Shown piece after piece: positions 7,655-15,766 of a stretch of DNA of 44,360 nucleotides. The stretch comes from Synechococcus sp. Lineage in GTDB: Bacteria > Cyanobacteriota > Cyanobacteriia > Thermostichales > PCC-7336. The stretch is from the NCBI GenBank assembly GCA_051439425.1, contig JBFRWD010000043.1:1-44360 (forward strand), written 5' to 3'. Position numbers and translations under genes: made by a program. Position 1 is the first letter of the stretch; the number at the start of each line of letters is the position of its first letter. The notes beneath the pieces are model-generated. The model was not told the DNA's origin. It saw only the letters and a list, made by a program, of their open reading frames with translations, and made no database searches.

Positions 7655-9469
7655 TTATGTGGTCTGAGTGTGCAGGTTAAATGCCTGGTGAATGGTTTGC
7701 AACGCTTCTAGGCCGCTGTCTGCTCGTACGACGCAACTGACTTTGATTTCGGAGGTGGAAATCATTTCGACGTTAATGTCATTGGCCGCCAGAGCTTGGA
7801 AGAGTTGAGCGGCAGTGCCGGGATGAGCCTCCATCGATGCCCCCACGATGCTGACTTTGGCGACGTCCGTGTCCACTTCTACGCCGCCACAGTCGAGTTC
7901 GGAGGAGATTTGCTCTAAGAGTCCTTTTGCGGTGCGGGCTTGTTCTTGTTTGGTGGTAAAGGCGATGTGGTTGGTGGGAATGCCACTGGCGTTGGTTTGG
8001 TTGCGCTGGCTTTGGACGATGGTATCGACCACAATGCCTGCGTCGGCTAGGCGTCTGAAGATCTTGGCGGCGTGACCGGGGCGATCGGGAACATCCAAAA
8101 TGGCGAGGCGGGCTTGGTCGAAGTCGAGGGCAACACCGCTGACGGGAGAGGTGGTTGAGGAGCGATCGACGGGGGCCGGGTCGGCGACGGCATGAGGGAC
8201 GACTTGGAAGTATTGGCTCAGTTGTAGGGCTGCATCTCCAGCGCGAGCCGAATCAATTGCACAGCTGACCTTAATCTCCGACATGGAAATCAGCTGTAAA
8301 TTAATGTCGGCTGCAGCCAAGACTTCGAACATTTCGGCGGCGATGCCGGGGCGACCGATCATGCCAGCTCCGGCGATGCTGACTTTCGCGATGTTGTTGT
8401 CTACTAACACTTCACGGCAGCCCAGATCTTTGGCCACTTGTTTAACGATTTCAGCGGCTTCAATGACGGAGCCGTGCTCTAGGGTAAATGAAATGTCATT
8501 GGTAACTTCCTCATCTTTATCAAGATTGGGGTGGACGGATTGCAGAATAAGGTCGACGTTGATGCCCGCAGCAGCGATCGCCTGGAATAGTTTGGCAGCC
8601 ACACCGGGGCGATCGGGCACTTGTAATAGGACGATTTTGGCTTGGTTACGATCGGCGGTTACTGCGGTTACGGCCTGAGAAGTCTCCAGACCGGAGAGGG
8701 TGGGGCGGCGGCTGGGTTGGGGGGAGAGGACAGCGGTGCCGGGGTCTTCAGTCCAACTGGAGCGGACTGCTAGTTTGAGGCCGTAGTTGCGAGCCAGTTC
8801 GACGGCACGGGGGTGGAGGACGTTGGCACCCAGGCTGGCGAGCTCCAGCATTTCGTCGCTGGTGATGTGGGGTAACAGTTGGGCTTCGGGGACTTTGCGG
8901 GGGTCGGTGGTGAGGACGCCGGGAACATCCGTATATATCTCGCAGACTTCGGCATTGAGGGCGACTGCCAGGGCGACGGCGGTGGTGTCGGAACCGCCGC
9001 GACCGAGGGTGGTGATTTCTAGGTCGATGGGGCTGGAGATGCCTTGGAATCCGGCGACGATGACGACTTTTCCGGCATCGAGGTGGCGGCGAATGCGATC
9101 GGGACTGATTTCGTAGATGCGGGCGCGGGAATGTTCCCGTTCGGTCAGGATTCCGGCTTGGGCTCCGGTGAGGGAGGTGGCGGGGCAACCGATTTGCTGC
9201 AGGGCCATAGAGAGTAGGGAGATGCTGACTTGCTCGCCGGTGGAGAGCAACATGTCCATTTCGCGACGGTATTCTACGCTGTCGTCGGGGTCGGGGACGA
9301 TGTCGTTGGCGAGGGAGACGAGGGTGTCAGTTTGTTTGCCCATGGCGGATACAACCGCCACTACTTGATGGCCCTGGGCGACGGTGCGGGAGATGCGATC
9401 GGCGACGGCTTGAATGCGTTCGACGGTGCCGACGGAGGTACCTCCATATTTATGAACGATTAGGGCCAT
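7655..9469 (-). CDS. lysC: Aspartate kinase, cyanobacterial type with four ACT domains
   Basis: KYGGTSVG, VVSAMG, TTLGRGGSDTTA, YTDVPGV and VLHPRAVE, followed by repeated VPDRPG / AKVSI / SEIKVSC ACT modules. Confidence 0.97.
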   Translation of the reverse strand: MALIVHKYGGTSVGTVERIQAVADRISRTVAQGHQVVAVVSAMGKQTDTLVSLANDIVPDPDDSVEYRREMDMLLSTGEQVSISLLSMALQQIGCPATSLTGAQAGILTEREHSRARIYEISPDRIRRHLDAGKVVIVAGFQGISSPIDLEITTLGRGGSDTTAVALAVALNAEVCEIYTDVPGVLTTDPRKVPEAQLLPHITSDEMLELASLGANVLHPRAVELARNYGLKLAVRSSWTEDPGTAVLSPQPSRRPTLSGLETSQAVTAVTADRNQAKIVLLQVPDRPGVAAKLFQAIAAAGINVDLILQSVHPNLDKDEEVTNDISFTLEHGSVIEAAEIVKQVAKDLGCREVLVDNNIAKVSIAGAGMIGRPGIAAEMFEVLAAADINLQLISMSEIKVSCAIDSARAGDAALQLSQYFQVVPHAVADPAPVDRSSTTSPVSGVALDFDQARLAILDVPDRPGHAAKIFRRLADAGIVVDTIVQSQRNQTNASGIPTNHIAFTTKQEQARTAKGLLEQISSELDCGGVEVDTDVAKVSIVGASMEAHPGTAAQLFQALAANDINVEMISTSEIKVSCVVRADSGLEALQTIHQAFNLHTQTT

Positions 9470-9617
9470 GTACTTGTGGTGAACGGTGCATCCGCGATTG
9501 TATTACGTGACCTATCGCGGTGGCACGGCTGGATATGGGATTGTGGTGCTTCCTTGGTTTGTCTGAGGTATGACAGGTTTGCTGGTATAGGCGCGGTGGG
9601 CGTCAGGATGTGGAGCG

Positions 9618-9809
9618 ATGGCGGAAGGTGGTCAAGAAGGAGCGGTGACTGAGGAATGGTATGTGGTGCAGCGGCCTGAGGGGCATTGCGAGATTGTCGA
9701 TGCGGTTCCAGAAGAGGATGCGACCAATTGGGGGCCATTTGCGTCGCAGGGGGATGCCATTGCTCGCCGAATTGGGTTGATTCGGTCTGGGAAGTGTCAG
9801 CCAGTGTGA
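9618..9809 (+). CDS. Conserved small cyanobacterial hypothetical protein (63 aa)
   Basis: WYVVQRPEGHCEI...WGPFASQGDAIARRIGLIRSGKCQP resembles a widespread small cyanobacterial family (recalled, not searched). GGAG lies upstream of the ATG. Confidence 0.75.
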   Translation: MAEGGQEGAVTEEWYVVQRPEGHCEIVDAVPEEDATNWGPFASQGDAIARRIGLIRSGKCQPV

Positions 9810-9823
9810 TGTGAGGCATAAGA

Positions 9824-9925
9824 TTAGCGGTTGTCGAATAGGATTTTGGCCAGGATGACAAAAACCAGGATGATGGCTAGTTCGGTGGTTCCGACTTGTG
9901 GAGCGCTAAGGACTTTGGCACTCAT
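9824..9925 (-). CDS. Putative 33-aa single-pass membrane peptide, divergent from the NACHT gene
   Basis: Manual translation gives MSAKVLSAPQVGTTELAIILVFVILAKILFDNR*, with one hydrophobic helix. It is below the ORF track cutoff. Confidence 0.5.
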   Translation of the reverse strand: MSAKVLSAPQVGTTELAIILVFVILAKILFDNR

Positions 9926-10088
9926 CTGTTTCGCTTCCAAATTGCATCCCAAGTAGCGTCTGCCAGTTTTCCAACAGCCCAAGAGATTAGGGCTGACAAG
10001 ATGAACAGAAGAAGGGCTTTCATTGCGAACTCCATCACGACAGCCTAACTATGCCGGAAGATAAATGTGGGCAGATCGGCAGGAGATT

Positions 10089-10121
10089 GGGACTTTTTTG
10101 TGACTTTGGTGTGACTTTGTG
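10089..10121. promoter_or_regulatory. Three tandem direct repeats with 11-bp period (candidate operator)
   Basis: GGGACTTTTTT / GTGACTTTGGT / GTGACTTTGTG, about 55 bp upstream of the NACHT ATG. Confidence 0.5.
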
Positions 10122-10174
10122 GGTTTTGCCATTACGGCCGCTAGAGTGAGGCATGTCGAATTCTGCTGCAGCAC

Positions 10175-12530
10175 ATGTCGGGGCAAACGCTACAGCTCTC
10201 AGAGCGAGGAAAGAAACTTGCAAGAGAAGCTCTTAAAAAGCTTGGTATGTCCCAGAAGAAACTAGCAGTGCGCCTGGAACTATCTGAGTGGTCAGTATCA
10301 AATTTTATGAGAGTTAAGCCAGTTAAATCGGAAAATTTTTTGAAACTCTGTGGTCATCTGAAGCTAGATATTGAGCAAGTAGTTGAAAAAATTGAAGAGC
10401 CAACTGACATTTCAGCACTGATCAAAGAAGTTCGAGCCAAAGTCTACGACGACATCAATTACCGCTGCGGCGCGATGCGTGTGTTAGATATGACGCAGCC
10501 TGTTGGAATGGGACAGATTTACACCCAAGTCAATATTTTGGAGAAGATCACTGGAGCAAGACGATTGGGCATCAGCGAGCTGATGGAGGCTTGCGAAGTG
10601 GAGAATTTCGAAAGAGTTGGCCTCGGAGATATTAAACAGAAAAAAGTACCGGGGTTAAAAGCGGTACAAGTTCACAATCGTCTGATGGTGCTAGGAAAAC
10701 CCGGAGCCGGAAAAACAACATTTCTAAAGTACTTGGCAACTCAATGCAATCAGGGTAGTGAGTTTCAAGAATTAGTCCCTATTTTTGTAACGCTCAAAGA
10801 GTTTGCTGAGGCAGAAGAATCACCCTCGTTACTGGAATACTTAAATGGCTATTTTCATAAAACTAAAGTACCTAATCCTAAGGAAACGCTGGAGAAGCTA
10901 CTCGAAGGAGATTCAACACTTATTCTTCTGGACGGCCTTGATGAAGTTAGGCAAGAGGATACAGGACGAATCTATAAGCAGATAGAAGACTTGGCCGCTC
11001 AGGCAGGAAATAGCTTTGTAGTTGTGACCTGTCGGATTGCTGCGAAAGAATATACTTTCGAGCACTTTACCGAAGTCGAGGTTGCTGACTTCGACAAAAG
11101 GCAGATAGTAGAGTTCTCTTCCAATTGGTATGGAAAGAGGAATCTTCCTAAAGCTCAGAAATTCACAGAAAAAATCAACAACAGTGTCCGAGTAAAAGAA
11201 TTGGCAACCAATCCACTTCTACTAACTATGTTGTGTTTACTCTTTGAAGAAAATACTGATTTTCCTGTCAATCGTTACGAACTATATCAAGAAGGAGTTA
11301 AGGTTTTACTCAAAAAGTGGGATGCCAATCGGAATATTGAACGGCAAGACGTATATAACAAGCTTTCTCCAAGACGAAAGGAAGATCTACTTAGCCACGT
11401 AGCTCTATCTGCTTTCGAAGAAGCAGAATATTTTTTTCAAGCAGAAGCGACTGGAAGAGCGAATCTGTGAATATGTTAGACATTTGCCTGAAGCCGAGTC
11501 AGATCCAGAAGCATTAGCTTTAGACGGAGAGGCTGTCCTTAAGGCAATTGAGGCTCATCATGGTTTACTCGTTGAACGTGCAAGAGGAATTTATTCTTTT
11601 TCTCACTTAACATTACAGGAATATTTTGCAGCCCGACAAATTATCGAAAATAGACCCACCTCTTTTGAAGCTTTAGTCGCCAGAGAAACTGATAAATCTT
11701 GGCGGGAAATTGTTCTGCTTACAGTTAATGGCCTATCTAGAGCAGATGATTTTATTCTATTGTTTAAGCAACATATAGATTCTCTTGTCTACGAAGAACT
11801 TGAAATTCAAAATATCCTAGTTTGGTTGCATAAAAAAACTGTACCTATAGACAGCTCGTATAAACCCGCAGCAGTCAGAGCCTACTACTTTTCCCGTGCC
11901 CTCAACCTTGCCTGTGCTCGTGCTCATGATCTTGAACTTGCCCGCACCTTTGAGCTTGCCCGTGATCTTGAGCTTTCGCATGACCTTGCCCGTGACTTTG
12001 CTCGAGAGCTTGAGCTTGAGCTGGACATTATTGACATTGACCCTAATCTTGCCCTTGACCTTGCCCTTGACCTTGCCCTTGACCGTGCTCGTGCTCTTGA
12101 TCGTGCTCGTACCTATGCCCTTGATCGTGCCTATACCTTTGACCGTGCCCGTGCCCTTGAACGTGCCCTTGACCGTGCCATTGATCGTGCTCAAAAAATA
12201 GATAAGCCAATGGCAGAACTTCTTGAAAATCTAAACAGTCAACTCCCTAAGAATTCAGATGAATGCGTCGAATGCTTTAAACAGGGCAACCGGAAATTCA
12301 CTAACAAGTTAACTTCCCTGATGCAAGAGCTTAGAAATTTTGGCCACGATTGGCAATTCAACACTAAACAAATAGAGATTTTGAAACATTATCTTGAATC
12401 AAATAAGTTCTTAGTCGAATGCCTCAACACCGACTGTTACGTCAATCTAGAAGTCCGCCAAGAAGTCGAAGGCACCCTTCTCCTCCCCATGTCCGAAATC
12501 GAAGCCTACAAAAAAGCTCATCCCAGATAG
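10175..12530 (+). pseudogene. HTH-NACHT (STAND NTPase) with helical C-terminal domain, interrupted by a 1-nt frameshift in a T7 tract at 11431-11437
   Basis: N-terminal XRE-like HTH (MSQKKLAVRLELSEWSVSNF), Walker A GKPGAGKTT, Walker B LILLDGLDE, TCR and NPLLL, then FSHLTLQEYFAA in the second ORF. Removing one T joins the ORFs as EYFFKQKRLEERICEYVRHLPE. Confidence 0.9.
11890..12190 (+). repeat. Low-complexity coding repeats (D/E-L-A-R/L units) in the NACHT C-terminal region
   Basis: CTTGCCCTTGAC x3 near 12048-12083 plus many degenerate GACCGTGCC/CTTGAT units, encoding LALDLALDLALDRARALDRAR. Confidence 0.85.
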
Positions 12531-12535
12531 AACTC

Positions 12536-12627
12536 TTACCGAACATTCAAAGACGGCGGCAGCTGATAATCCAATGACAATCCAAACGCCTGCAACAACT
12601 CCGATTCCTCCACCGTCACTCGCCCAT
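12536..12627 (-). repeat. Degenerate duplicate of the last 92 bp of the large M48 gene (13811-13902)
   Basis: Manual ungapped alignment gives 80/92 identity. It translates as GRVTVEESELLQAFGLSLDYQLPPSLNVR* against GRVTVKESELLRAFVLSLDCPLPPFLNIR*. Confidence 0.92.
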
Positions 12628-13731
12628 GTCTTTCGCCTCAGGAAAATAACTCACGATCGCTCGAATCCTAGCCACAATAGGCGGATGAGTCGCAAACAAC
12701 TTGCTGTCATCATCCAAACTCGAACAGAAAAACATGTGACACACCGCTTCCGCCTGAGGCGCAAGCATCTGCAATCCTCCTTCCAGCTTTGAAATCTTCC
12801 ACAACACAGAACACAAACTGCGAGGATTGCGAGTTAAGCGCACCGCAGCCACATCAGCCAAAAACTCGCTCTGTCGGGCAACCGCCGCTTGAATCAACCG
12901 ACTGAAAAGCAGCCCAACATACCCCGACACCTGGGCAAACACGTTCAATATCAATGCGAGGAAAGTAGTCAAAAAGAACATCGAGCCCTCATTGGAATCA
13001 ATCTCTGATTTATTTAATCGCCTAGATACAAACTTCCGAATACCGATATAAACCACAAGCAGGCTGTTCAAGAAAATGTAGAGCCAGGAATTAAAACCAG
13101 TATCTCCATTTAAAATATGGCCGAATTCGTGGGCAACCACCGCCTGAAGTTCGCTGCGGTTGAGCTTTTCAAGACATCCCTGAGTTACGCATATCGCTGA
13201 TGTTTGAATGGTAAAGCCGCTAGCAAACGCATTGATTCCAGATTCTTGCTCCAACACAAATATCCTTGGAGACGGGACCCCAGCCGCGATCGCCATTTCA
13301 TCCACAACATTACTCACCACAAGAAAGCCTGGATTCGTATCGCCATCCAGAATCTCGGTAGCACCCAAACTATAAGCAACCGCTGCTCCTCCCCGTCGCT
13401 TTAGTGCTCTAAATTTTGCAATAGCCGTAAAACAGACCATCGCCACAATACAAACCGTTAAACCAAGCAGAACATTCGGAAACCAAAAGTCCAACCGACT
13501 AACAAATGCCTGCCCGTACTCCTCAATCTCTAGGGTATCTAGCACGTCGAGACTGGCCTTGTATTGGAGGAAGAAATACTTGATGGGCGCAGCAACGATC
13601 AGAAATACGCAGTAGAAACTTAGAATCAGCGTGGACACGGTCGAGATGTAGGCGATCGCAAACAACAGAGACAACCGCTTCGTTATCCGCTTCGATTTTG
13701 CTCGGCGTTTATCTACATCAACGATGCTCAT
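12616..13731 (-). CDS. M48 (HtpX-like) membrane zinc metallopeptidase, short paralogue
   Basis: NVVDEMAIAAG, INAFA, AHEFGH (HExxH), EFLAD and ATHPP, with several transmembrane segments. Confidence 0.9.
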   Translation of the reverse strand: MSIVDVDKRRAKSKRITKRLSLLFAIAYISTVSTLILSFYCVFLIVAAPIKYFFLQYKASLDVLDTLEIEEYGQAFVSRLDFWFPNVLLGLTVCIVAMVCFTAIAKFRALKRRGGAAVAYSLGATEILDGDTNPGFLVVSNVVDEMAIAAGVPSPRIFVLEQESGINAFASGFTIQTSAICVTQGCLEKLNRSELQAVVAHEFGHILNGDTGFNSWLYIFLNSLLVVYIGIRKFVSRRLNKSEIDSNEGSMFFLTTFLALILNVFAQVSGYVGLLFSRLIQAAVARQSEFLADVAAVRLTRNPRSLCSVLWKISKLEGGLQMLAPQAEAVCHMFFCSSLDDDSKLFATHPPIVARIRAIVSYFPEAKDMGE

Positions 13732-13810: not shown

Positions 13811-15766
13811 TTACCGAATATTCAAAAACGGCGGTAGCGGACAATCCAACGACAGTACAAACGCCCGCAACAACTCCGATTCTTTTACCGTCACTCGCCC
13901 ATCCAACAACACCGTCCGCGCACAAGCCTCCACTACCGCCTGCTTCCCCTTCGGAGCCAACCGCCGCAAATTCTCCAATCCCGCATCCAAACTCTGCGTC
14001 GTAAACAGCGGCAAGCGATCGCCATTCTTCACCCGATCCGACACCGTCACATCCGCAGACCGCACCAACCGATCCACACCCGCCTGAAACGCAAAAACGC
14101 GATCGCCCTCCGAATCGTGCCCCGCCTTCGCCAGCGCCGCCACCAACGTCAAACAATCTCCAAGCACATCCGCAACGCTCTCGTACTTCACCGCCGGATT
14201 CAGCTCGCCCCCCAACGCCACCGTCAATCGACTGCGCAACACCGCCATCAAGGCAAACTCCGACAGCGACACCTCTCCATCCGCCATCACCAACTGATGC
14301 ACGTTATTGGCAAACATCTGACAGCCATCTGTCTCCATCCGCCGCAGTGCAGGCACGGCCAAATCCAACACCGGCAAGCACAATCGTAGATCTAGATTCT
14401 TCAGCGAGGCACCCACCTCAACTACTGCCGTCATCACCTCCTCTGGTTCCGTTTCCCTCAGCTTGCTCAACTGGTGATCGCGCATCTCCCCATCGTCATC
14501 CAACAACAACGCATACACGCACCCCTTCGCTCCCGGCAGAGTGTGTAGCTGCGCTCTCAACCTCTGCGGTAACTTCTGTAATAGAGCGTGAACCTGAGCG
14601 ATCCCCTTCTCATCTGCAATCCCAATCCGCTCTGCAATATCTTCAACCGCCATCGGAGCAGTACTTTCAGACACAACAGTCGCTGCCCGCTGCCCGCCCA
14701 CAGGAGCACTACCCACCAAACCACTGGCCAATCCAGCTGCTCCAGCAGGAGCCATACCAACAGTCGCTACCTGCGGTGCCGGATCGTGAAATTGAACGGC
14801 TCCACCCAATCTCCGAATGCGCTCAGCCAGCGGAGGATGGGACGCAAACGCTCTGCCTCCAAAGGACGACACCGCCGACCCAAAAAACAAATGACTGGCC
14901 GCTTCTGCCTGAGGTGCCAACACCGACGACCCCTGCGAATATCCAGCGATCTTCTGCAACGCACTGGCAATCCCGCTGGGGTTACGCGTAAACTGCACCG
15001 CCGATGCATCTGCCAAAAACTCCCGCTGACGGGATACGGCTGCCTTAATGGCTCGACTACACAACCAACCAATTCCCCCCACCGCAAACATCGCAAATCC
15101 CAATACCAAGGCCGGATTCCCTTTAGAATTTCGCGAACGATATCGAGGAGTGCTCATGCGCATCAGCAATCGTCCAGCCAAGTGGATCAGCAAAATCCCT
15201 TGCAAAACCCCAATCAACTTCAGATTGAGATTCATATCCCCATTCAGAATGTGGCTGAATTCATGAGCAATCACCCCCTGCAGCTCATCCCGATCGAGCT
15301 GCTCCAAACATCCCTGAGTCACCGCCACAGCAGCATCATTCGTGGTGAAACCCGCCGCAAATGCATTAATACCGTGCTCGTTAGCCAACACAAACATCCT
15401 GGGCACCGGCACCCCGGAGGCGATCGCCATCTCCTCCACCACATTCACAAATACCAACTGCTCGTCAGTCGCCATTTCCGCATACACTTCGCTCCCCCCC
15501 AAGCTCAAGGCCACCTGTGCCCCTCCCCCTTTCTTCAGTGCCAAATACTTCCACAAACTGCCGCTTCCCACCAGCAGTAACGTCCAAACAGTCACCCCAA
15601 AAAACGCCTCTGGGTACCAGAGAGTGGCGGTACTCGACCCCTGAGAAATCGTCACGGCAACCGCTAAATACAATCCAGTGATCGTGAAGGCGATCGCGGC
15701 AACAAACAGTCCCAACAACTGAGTCGTGTTGTGGCGGGCTTTGTCTTGGGATTCGAAAAAATTCAT
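13811..15766 (-). CDS. M48 (HtpX-like) zinc metallopeptidase with long C-terminal TerB-like helical region
   Basis: MNFFESQ start, AHEFSH, REFLADA and ASHPP. The C-terminus has ADGEVSLSE and LDGRVTVKE motifs and ends CPLPP. Confidence 0.93.
   Translation of the reverse strand: MNFFESQDKARHNTTQLLGLFVAAIAFTITGLYLAVAVTISQGSSTATLWYPEAFFGVTVWTLLLVGSGSLWKYLALKKGGGAQVALSLGGSEVYAEMATDEQLVFVNVVEEMAIASGVPVPRMFVLANEHGINAFAAGFTTNDAAVAVTQGCLEQLDRDELQGVIAHEFSHILNGDMNLNLKLIGVLQGILLIHLAGRLLMRMSTPRYRSRNSKGNPALVLGFAMFAVGGIGWLCSRAIKAAVSRQREFLADASAVQFTRNPSGIASALQKIAGYSQGSSVLAPQAEAASHLFFGSAVSSFGGRAFASHPPLAERIRRLGGAVQFHDPAPQVATVGMAPAGAAGLASGLVGSAPVGGQRAATVVSESTAPMAVEDIAERIGIADEKGIAQVHALLQKLPQRLRAQLHTLPGAKGCVYALLLDDDGEMRDHQLSKLRETEPEEVMTAVVEVGASLKNLDLRLCLPVLDLAVPALRRMETDGCQMFANNVHQLVMADGEVSLSEFALMAVLRSRLTVALGGELNPAVKYESVADVLGDCLTLVAALAKAGHDSEGDRVFAFQAGVDRLVRSADVTVSDRVKNGDRLPLFTTQSLDAGLENLRRLAPKGKQAVVEACARTVLLDGRVTVKESELLRAFVLSLDCPLPPFLNIR

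Follow-up and report, generated by a model that had tools for sequence, protein, structure and literature searches.

A probable XssQ-type cassette in Synechococcus sp.: a STAND regulator, phased boxes and two divergent micro-ORFs for membrane peptides

Positions 9824–12530 of contig JBFRWD010000043.1 from Synechococcus sp. (assembly GCA_051439425.1; the whole stretch of 44,360 nucleotides is called the window here) contain a gene for a STAND protein with helix-turn-helix (HTH), NACHT and NCH2 domains and, divergently upstream, two micro open reading frames (micro-ORFs) for membrane peptides of 33 amino acids (aa). The locus is probably a two-part cassette of the XssQ type, i.e., a ligand-gated STAND transcription factor which drives a swappable small-effector gene. 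This reading is carried by the domain make-up, the homology to XssQ, a layout conserved among relatives, the orientation and geometry of the phased boxes between the genes, and the covariation of protein heads and boxes. XssQ of Synechocystis sp. PCC 6803 has been described as a STAND protein with N-terminal HTH, which is required for expression of five xss genes, activates synechan biosynthesis and, in electrophoretic mobility shift assays, shifts DNA with AAGTTxxAC boxes, either single or in tandem (Maeda et al. 2021, eLife, PMC8205485). An initial annotation of this DNA had suggested a STAND sensor whose output would be transcription of one tiny membrane peptide. The core of this idea is supported by the comparison of loci, by the homology to XssQ and by orientation and distance of the boxes; its details needed revision, since two ORFs are present, the regulator gene is frameshifted, and the nearest precedent is the full-length homologue XssQ and not MalT.

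The regulator is encoded on the forward strand in two parts. The 5' part (10175–11470; 431 aa) comprises an XRE-like HTH head (about residues 1–70), a linker and the NACHT NTPase, with the Walker A and B motifs GKPGAGKTT and LILLDGLDE; the 3' part (11484–12530; 348 aa) comprises a helical/winged-helix portion, an arm of x-Leu/Arg dipeptides encoded by hexanucleotide-based repeats (11921–12190 by tandem-repeat scan; e.g., LALDLALDLALDRARALDRA) and the NACHT C-terminal helical domain 2 (NCH2, PF22727; 12216–12488). Pfam matches had E values of 3.9e-16 for NACHT (PF05729) in the 431-aa ORF and 7.9e-25 for NCH2 in the 348-aa ORF, and no enzymatic domain was found in either ORF in Pfam, NCBIfam or PADLOC. 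The fusion of an HTH to NACHT with a repeat-rich C-terminus and no enzymatic domain, as noted initially, was thus recovered, the HTH match being weak. Both ORFs are parts of a single gene, which is split by a +1 frameshift at a run of seven T (11431–11437); the reading of the orthologue has one T fewer, and an intact orthologue reads EYFFKQKRLE through this point. The contig of a second assembler, which was probably built from the same reads, showed no differences and no indels in 9600–12600. The frameshift is no assembler artefact; the reads being the same, this is not independent proof. A programmed frameshift or transcriptional slippage at the run of T was considered and rejected, since a shift of +1 would be needed, in a short run which is not followed by a slow codon or a stop. 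A two-copy 11-bp tandem (TGACAATCCAA; 12564–12585), which may be due to chance, directly follows the stop codon of the regulator.

An intact orthologue of 769 aa with 71% DNA identity was found in another genome of the same genus (G001), with both micro-ORFs divergently upstream, together with two copies of GTGTGACTT, 11 bp apart. Its neighbourhood is different from that in the window, as it is located beside genes for a universal stress protein and phosphoribosyl pyrophosphate synthetase. The dipeptide arm is missing from this orthologue and is present in a plasmid-borne homologue (L168, see below) and in a second NACHT-NCH2 paralogue of the window's own genome (G000:C126:1-600, L055); the latter is situated at a contig edge, where the assembly breaks inside the arm (SL/SR/DL units).

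The product of xssQ carries NACHT and NCH2, and in BLASTP both window ORFs matched it collinearly from end to end (ORF1, 30% identity, E 6e-63; ORF2, 31% identity, E 3e-40), NACHT being followed by NCH2 in both proteins and residues 1–70 of the window protein aligning to the XssQ head. Shared features are the N-terminal HTH, NACHT, a helical region, a short D/L-rich stretch and NCH2, and, at the level of the locus, a divergent target gene and boxes of related motifs in the intergenic region, AAGTTnnAC for XssQ and AAGTC(A/C)CA(C/A) in the window. The xssQ gene, listed as slr5058 together with four uncharacterised Anabaena homologues (PMC12267927), is located on pSYSM (NC_005229.1, 57972–60323) beside genes for a response regulator and a hybrid kinase. 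Seven of the nine matches to AAGTTNNAC on this plasmid precede start codons of five xss genes by 73–125 nt, all seven in the sense of the downstream gene; by their order and products these genes are taken to be xssA, E, L, N and P, of which xssP is divergent from xssQ.

In the window, three upstream repeats with an 11-bp period, already seen in the initial annotation, were confirmed by Tandem Repeats Finder (10087–10120; 3.1 copies, consensus TTGTGACTTTG). Their cores on the forward strand are GGACTT (10090–10095), TGACTT (10101–10106) and TGACTT (10112–10117); on the strand of the micro-ORFs, the boxes at 10090, 10101 and 10112 read AAGTCCCAA, AAGTCACAA and AAGTCACAC, respectively. In this sense they conform to AAGTC(A/C)CA(C/A), with six of the seven specified positions of the XssQ box AAGTTnnAC in agreement, and AAGTCACAC, AAGTCACAA and AAGTCCCAA precede the ATG of micro-ORF 1 at 10023 by 94, 83 and 72 nt. 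The arrangement TGACTT-N5-TGACTT occurs only once in the 4.8-Mb genome. Motif, orientation and distance fit the rule of the activated XssQ targets, the window boxes having both the orientation and the distance of the boxes at those targets; the regulated genes would accordingly be the micro-ORFs.

Candidate promoter elements were located by eye. On the reverse strand, TATCTT (10058–10063) is a candidate for the -10 element upstream of the micro-ORFs and is separated from the nearest box by 26 nt (AAGTCC-N26-TATCTT). Several loci with different partner genes contain, on the partner side, AAGTCA-N23-TGCGACAGT, an extended -10-like element, where the AAGTCA core likewise ends 26 nt before the hexamer GACAGT. 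The nearest box would accordingly be centred around -41 of the micro-ORF promoter. On the forward strand, TAGAGT (10142–10147), 24 nt after the last box, is a candidate -10 element of the NACHT promoter, and a degenerate fourth box unit occupies the -35 position on this side. The regulator is likely to autoregulate as well, since the array overlaps the -35 region of its own promoter.

Micro-ORF 1 (9922–10023, reverse strand; MKALLLFILSALISWAVGKLADATWDAIWKRNR) encodes 33 aa from the ATG at 10023, with an alternative GTG start at 10038; GGAG is found 6 nt before the ATG, and in the peptide a hydrophobic helix at the N-terminus is combined with an amphipathic tail. Micro-ORF 2 (9824–9925, reverse strand; MSAKVLSAPQVGTTELAIILVFVILAKILFDNR), likewise of 33 aa, encodes a single hydrophobic helix together with a basic end. 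The stop codon of the former overlaps the start codon of the latter (ATGA), a sign of translational coupling. The single divergent ORF of the initial annotation (9925–9824) is present as described there; the second one, at 10023–9922, had been overlooked. Micro-ORF 1 aligns with divergent ORFs of G001, L020 and L040, Sphaerospermopsis and Anabaena loci being among these, with M1, L9, A11, L12, W15, K19 and K30 invariant throughout. Differences from G001 at codon positions 1, 2 and 3 number 12, 5 and 15 in micro-ORF 1, and 7, 3 and 11 in the helix of micro-ORF 2; the pattern appears coding-like, with second positions changing least. The homologue of micro-ORF 2 divergent to the G001 orthologue has 46 aa and matches just two database proteins; since NCBI annotates it as a hypothetical protein, the expectation that gene callers would miss the effector does not hold in every case. 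The two peptides matched no family in Pfam, NCBIfam and PADLOC, and in a protein atlas no score exceeded 0.80, the clusters matched being unnamed. With regard to type I toxins and other small membrane toxin peptides, the features observed were hydrophobic helices and conservation. A P/T/Q-rich N-terminus, one transmembrane (TM) segment and a basic tail, similar to micro-ORF 2, are common to a loose set of proteins from L046, L086, L090, L145, L148, L152, L106 and L114.

A search for relatives yielded 34 cyanobacterial loci. NCH2 was present in 185 of 301 sampled cyanobacterial genomes, with roughly 540 hits in total, and the best-scoring NCH2 gene was taken from 80 of these 185; inspected by eye, 75 of the 80 genes had XRE-like or LuxR/sigma-like heads and two had TIR-like heads, the remaining three being ORF calls which start too far downstream. 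A FastTree phylogeny was constructed from the first 470 residues of 107 homologues and XssQ (108 rows); partial sequences (L030, L052, L037), those with TIR-like heads (L088, L155) and truncated calls (L098, L121, L132) were left out. The tree splits with a support of 100 into clade A (43 rows), with XssQ and the "MVKRSLQ..." subfamily, and clade B (65 rows), with the window protein and its G001 orthologue.

A fixed criterion was used for the divergent partner, namely an ORF of 24–130 aa beginning with ATG on the other strand, its start 40–330 nt upstream, with a hydropathy of at least 1.9 over 15 residues. Such ORFs were found at 41 of 65 clade B loci and 3 of 42 clade A loci, compared to 4 and 6, respectively, in reversed control sequences, and 8 and 2 in complement-only control sequences. 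Phased chains of TGACTT-like boxes on the NACHT-sense strand were likewise concentrated in clade B (20 of 65 loci, 18 of them with at least three boxes; clade A, 3 of 42, none with three), and chains of at least two boxes were present on the opposite strand in 2 of 65 clade B loci. Within 400 bp upstream of the window gene and the 34 loci (35 in total), exact TGACTT occurred 50 times in NACHT sense and never in the opposite sense, the background being 0.33 per kb and strand. The check proposed with the initial annotation, a search of homologous loci for divergent TM ORFs and phased repeats, came out in its favour, chiefly in clade B.

With looser distances, a divergent partner was recognized by eye for 59 of 65 clade B genes. 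The partners belong to at least five unrelated families of small proteins with one or two TM segments, or are of the PD-(D/E)XK nuclease type; one family weakly matches Pfam CyanoTRADDas_TM (21.8 bits compared to 24.3 bits). On the tree, the partner family changes 25 times. The partner position looks like a swappable effector slot, which in relatives is occupied by unrelated small proteins of one or two TM segments or a PD-(D/E)XK nuclease.

The nuclease-like partner was found at six loci of the Lyngbya group. It has 226–240 aa, a D...ExK motif and a match to the profile of the mitochondrial exonuclease MGME1 (PD-(D/E)XK nuclease; E 1.1e-6), and is encoded divergently at L045:1856-2536, L048, L051, L050:2145-2867 and L047:21-743; the L049 copy is broken up into two ORFs. 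No Pfam family was matched, and the AlphaFold2 model of the 226-aa partner had a pLDDT of 38.7; profile match and motif suggest that the partner is a nuclease. Two of these loci, L045 and L050, represent a natural exchange of heads. Their NACHT cores are approximately 95% and their divergent nucleases 93% identical, whereas no alignment is possible over approximately the first 80 residues, the head being LuxR-like (LuxR/sigma-like) in one protein and XRE-like in the other. The boxes are different as well: L045 has five copies of CTGACTT with a period of about 10 bp, and L050 has GTATAACTT and GTGTAACTT, 22 bp apart, which are exact reverse complements of the XssQ box. Head and boxes have changed together in this case, which bears on the question whether the head reads the boxes.

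On these grounds the following course of events may be envisaged. The dipeptide-repeat arm and NCH2 are presumed to be the end of the regulator which receives the signal, probably a ligand. Following the switch of the NTPase, several copies of the regulator would bind, as an oligomer and head-to-tail, to the 11-bp-phased boxes, which are all on the same face of the helix. From its position centred near -41, the bound regulator would activate, rather than repress, the divergent promoter of the two coupled membrane peptides, and through the overlap of the same array with the -35 region of the regulator promoter it would probably control its own synthesis. The small membrane proteins would constitute the output.

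Several observations weigh against this proposal. HTH_3 in the window protein reached 19.9 bits, which is less than the Pfam cut-off of 23 bits (the G001 orthologue, with 24.1 bits, is above it). The regulator is frameshifted, and the cassette may be inoperative in this genome; XssQ-type factors have an intact reading frame, which the window gene lacks, and due to the frameshift the cassette is probably switched off or decaying here. XssQ, a physiological regulator, belongs to the other clade, and its function is not safely transferable. Only 20 of 65 clade B loci have phased TGACTT-like chains, the others having different or single motifs; the tree is a FastTree phylogeny which covers only the N-terminal 470 residues, and many loci are close kin (Nostoc, Lyngbya), so that the counts overstate independence. 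A scan of 9700–10300 with consensus sigma-70 elements yielded no promoters on either side and no terminators, the -10 elements having been assigned by eye; the empty scan agrees, weakly, with dependence on an activator. The distance from the boxes to the NACHT start codon is as constant as that to the partner, and the array might mainly serve the regulator's own promoter. Finally, no defence-island signal was found in the flanks of 21 homologous loci.

The constant spacing leads to a different explanation, according to which the boxes are solely the regulator's own operator and the micro-ORFs are unrelated small genes or non-functional frames which persist by linkage. The last box precedes the NACHT start codon by about 55–75 nt across loci, on the NACHT strand the boxes are similar to a -35 hexamer, and related peptides are absent from the atlas and scarce in the databases, with only the two matches for the G001 peptide. 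Such an explanation would have to accommodate divergent small hydrophobic ORFs far above the sequence controls, in clade B only, several partner families which are conserved across orders with their frames preserved, the coding-like substitutions in the micro-ORFs, and box orientations which obey the rule of activated XssQ targets; we consider it improbable. Somewhat less remote, although still unlikely, is the notion that the small membrane proteins are partners of the regulator, i.e., anchors, inhibitors, co-sensors or anti-activators, which for example bind the arm or NCH2 and are merely co-transcribed from a shared control region. The tight and persistent linkage of the two genes would be explained in this way, as would a NACHT protein with no recognised ligand-binding domain besides arm and NCH2, and membrane-linked sensing has been mentioned for other bacterial NACHT proteins (Kibby et al., bioRxiv 10.1101/2022.07.19.500537). 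Yet partner families switch between close relatives while NACHT and NCH2 remain similar, and the same slot may hold a soluble nuclease; an exchangeable output therefore fits better than a co-evolving binding partner. The orientation of the boxes, the same as at activated XssQ targets, argues against mere partners, too.

A repressor-toxin pair would be a further possibility: the HTH-NACHT protein on the boxes would keep toxic membrane peptides off, and their expression would set in upon a signal or once the protein is lost, as in toxin-antitoxin or addiction systems. A divergent regulator with small hydrophobic peptide genes, the mobile-looking composition, homologues on mobilisable plasmids, and boxes which overlap both putative promoters would be compatible with it. 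In contrast, the characterised relative XssQ is an activator (PMC8205485), and neither promoter has a recognisable -35 element, which is typical of activator-dependent promoters. Moreover, the regulator is frameshifted and both peptide genes are intact, which is hard to reconcile with a repressor unless the 431-aa fragment still represses; since the regulator is broken and the peptides are not, an activator fits better than a toxin repressor, with the proviso that the fragment may still bind DNA. A repressor-toxin pair would thus have little probability.

Whether the proposed activator cassette serves in defence is a separate matter, and a role in defence or abortive infection is plausible but less likely than not. 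Resemblance to conflict systems is seen in the exchangeable partner, the many paralogues, the fast-changing dipeptide arm, the low GC content in two hosts of higher GC content, and the occurrence on mobilisable plasmids. Against such a role stand the flanks of 21 loci, which contain mostly housekeeping genes (Uma2 was present in four loci, and one methylase and one SocA-like gene were found), and the physiological function of the characterised relative. Models of defence families gave 52.9 bits for EruA (cut-off 1000) and 17.6 bits for HyoA (cut-off 1200), and the match to PADLOC PDC-S60 covers NACHT only; matches to named defence families (bNACHT, EruA, HyoA, PDC-S60) were at the level of domains and not of full length. 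As a speculative extension, clade B might be an immune or self-destruct system of the NLR type, widespread among cyanobacteria, with the activated NACHT oligomer itself as the transcription factor: sensing by the hypervariable dipeptide arm and NCH2 would lead to cooperative binding of the phased boxes and to expression of a cassette-like killer gene, mostly for membrane-perforating peptides and elsewhere for a nuclease. Abortive infection would then be coupled to transcription, with exchangeable effectors, most of them unannotated.

The comparison with known systems may be summarized as follows. MalT of E. coli and the AfsR/SARP-type proteins are NTP-gated STAND activators, which multimerise on asymmetric direct repeats at whole helical turns near -35. 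In MalT the HTH is C-terminal and LuxR-type, and the NTPase is MalT-type, in contrast to the N-terminal XRE-like HTH and NACHT of the window protein, which is not a member of that family; AfsR has an OmpR-like/BTAD head, NB-ARC and TPR. NACHT and NCH2 are not known from MalT or AfsR, nor are small membrane peptides known among the targets of either. CBASS, Pycsar, retrons and similar systems combine one sensor chassis with exchangeable small TM or nuclease effectors; their effectors respond post-translationally to a nucleotide signal or to the sensor protein, whereas a transcriptional link is proposed here. The window locus is different from that of XssQ in its clade, in the absence of adjoining XssS/XssR two-component genes (it does not belong to the group of XssQ orthologues in the same clade with adjacent kinase and response regulator), and in its targets, a predicted pair of 33-aa membrane peptides instead of glycosyl- and sulfotransferases; furthermore, its boxes are three copies at 11 bp, its dipeptide arm is much longer, and its gene is frameshifted. 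With the bNACHT proteins the window protein has the NACHT module in common. Among the architectures of bacterial NACHT proteins, HTH and NCH are mentioned by Kibby et al. (bioRxiv 10.1101/2022.07.19.500537), who suggested that "adaptor" heads activate a transcriptional response and noted the abundance of NACHT paralogues in cyanobacteria; the proteins tested there had enzymatic or other effector heads and were mostly single genes, and neither a divergent small-gene partner nor phased boxes were encountered in that account, whose supplementary tables may list this clade.

The type of protein and its action as a transcription activator are therefore already known from XssQ, as is the presence of HTH and NCH domains in bacterial NACHT proteins (Kibby et al., bioRxiv 10.1101/2022.07.19.500537). 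A pairing of XssQ-like NACHT genes with divergent genes for small membrane proteins or a nuclease, and with phased, head-specific boxes, is not described in the literature searched, although supplementary material (that of Kibby et al., and file 3 of Maeda et al.) may bear on it. The possible importance of the locus lies in the following. NLR-type STAND proteins are usually thought to act via protein effectors. XssQ showed that a cyanobacterial NLR-type STAND protein can be a plain transcription activator, and a large, paralogue-rich sister clade now appears to be hard-wired, with one regulator for one divergent gene, encoding a very small membrane protein or a nuclease. If true, a regulator and a testable function would be assigned to several overlooked families of micro-proteins, an operator code with head type matched to box type would be defined, and immune-like sensors with transcription as output could be exemplified. 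The intact orthologue in the same genus and the natural head swap should provide ready handles for experiments.

One further locus with a divergent small ORF is located on plasmid pNPM4 of Nostoc sp. N6, which is mobilisable. A 70-aa ORF with one hydrophobic helix (L168:1161-1373, reverse strand) and an HTH-NACHT-NCH2 gene of 867 aa diverge there, the ORF being located 118 nt upstream of the gene; the ORF is missing from the gene table of PLSDB, which by design is not complete. In clade A, the "MVKRSLQ" loci (e.g., L126, L127, L110, L129, L142) have no divergent small ORF; their upstream 200 bp are AT-rich and contain motifs of the TGTTTGATTT type, arranged as a 10-bp tandem in L126 and L127, which may be the operator of these genes themselves. 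Nostocales loci encode a protein of 225–237 aa with no Pfam match about 400 nt downstream of the NACHT gene (L021:5781-6485, L023:5044-5754, L025:5604-6314, L035:5765-6475, L037:5708-6403, L041:5945-6619, L044:5600-6274), with an SLH-domain protein next to it in three loci; its recurrence could be due to shared ancestry, or it could be a third gene of the module.

By its sequence the window is cyanobacterial, with 40 HIP1 sites in 44 kb. The 2.7-kb stretch of the module has a GC content of 0.435, compared to 0.525 in the rest of the window, which is in line with the initial description of the NACHT gene as AT-richer than its neighbours; the module looks horizontally acquired, since its GC content is 9 points below that of the rest. 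The NACHT gene contains no HIP1 site, as had been noted, and none occurs between 8582 and 13285; as evidence for foreign origin this gap of 4.7 kb was discarded, being not significant alone among 40 sites, and the difference in GC content is the better indication. Synteny with G001 and the relative G003 stops at 9811, just before the micro-ORFs, and the M48 peptidase genes are located on a different contig in G003. DNA of the region 9470–10174 matched relatives only over a 63-aa ORF (in 6 of 41 genomes, including the window's own), all matches ending by 9812. A matching empty site for a clean insertion was not recovered in the comparisons with G003 and G001.

Upstream, the module is flanked by this 63-aa ORF (9618–9809, forward strand; …WYVVQRPEGHCEIVDA…GLIRSGKCQPV), which adjoins a 604-aa ORF (7655–9469, reverse strand), presumably aspartokinase-like by its sequence. 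The 63-aa ORF had no match in Pfam or NCBIfam; its DNA is kept in the genomes of five relatives, and intact frames of 63–65 aa are present in G001 and G003. It appears to be a genuine small cyanobacterial gene without a name. Downstream, two M48 peptidase genes follow on the reverse strand (12616–13731, by Pfam, and 13811–15766). They are tandem paralogues with multi-helix N-termini, the first having the lower GC content (about 0.47); in G003 only the 3' part of this first paralogue is left, beside an HNH-like gene.

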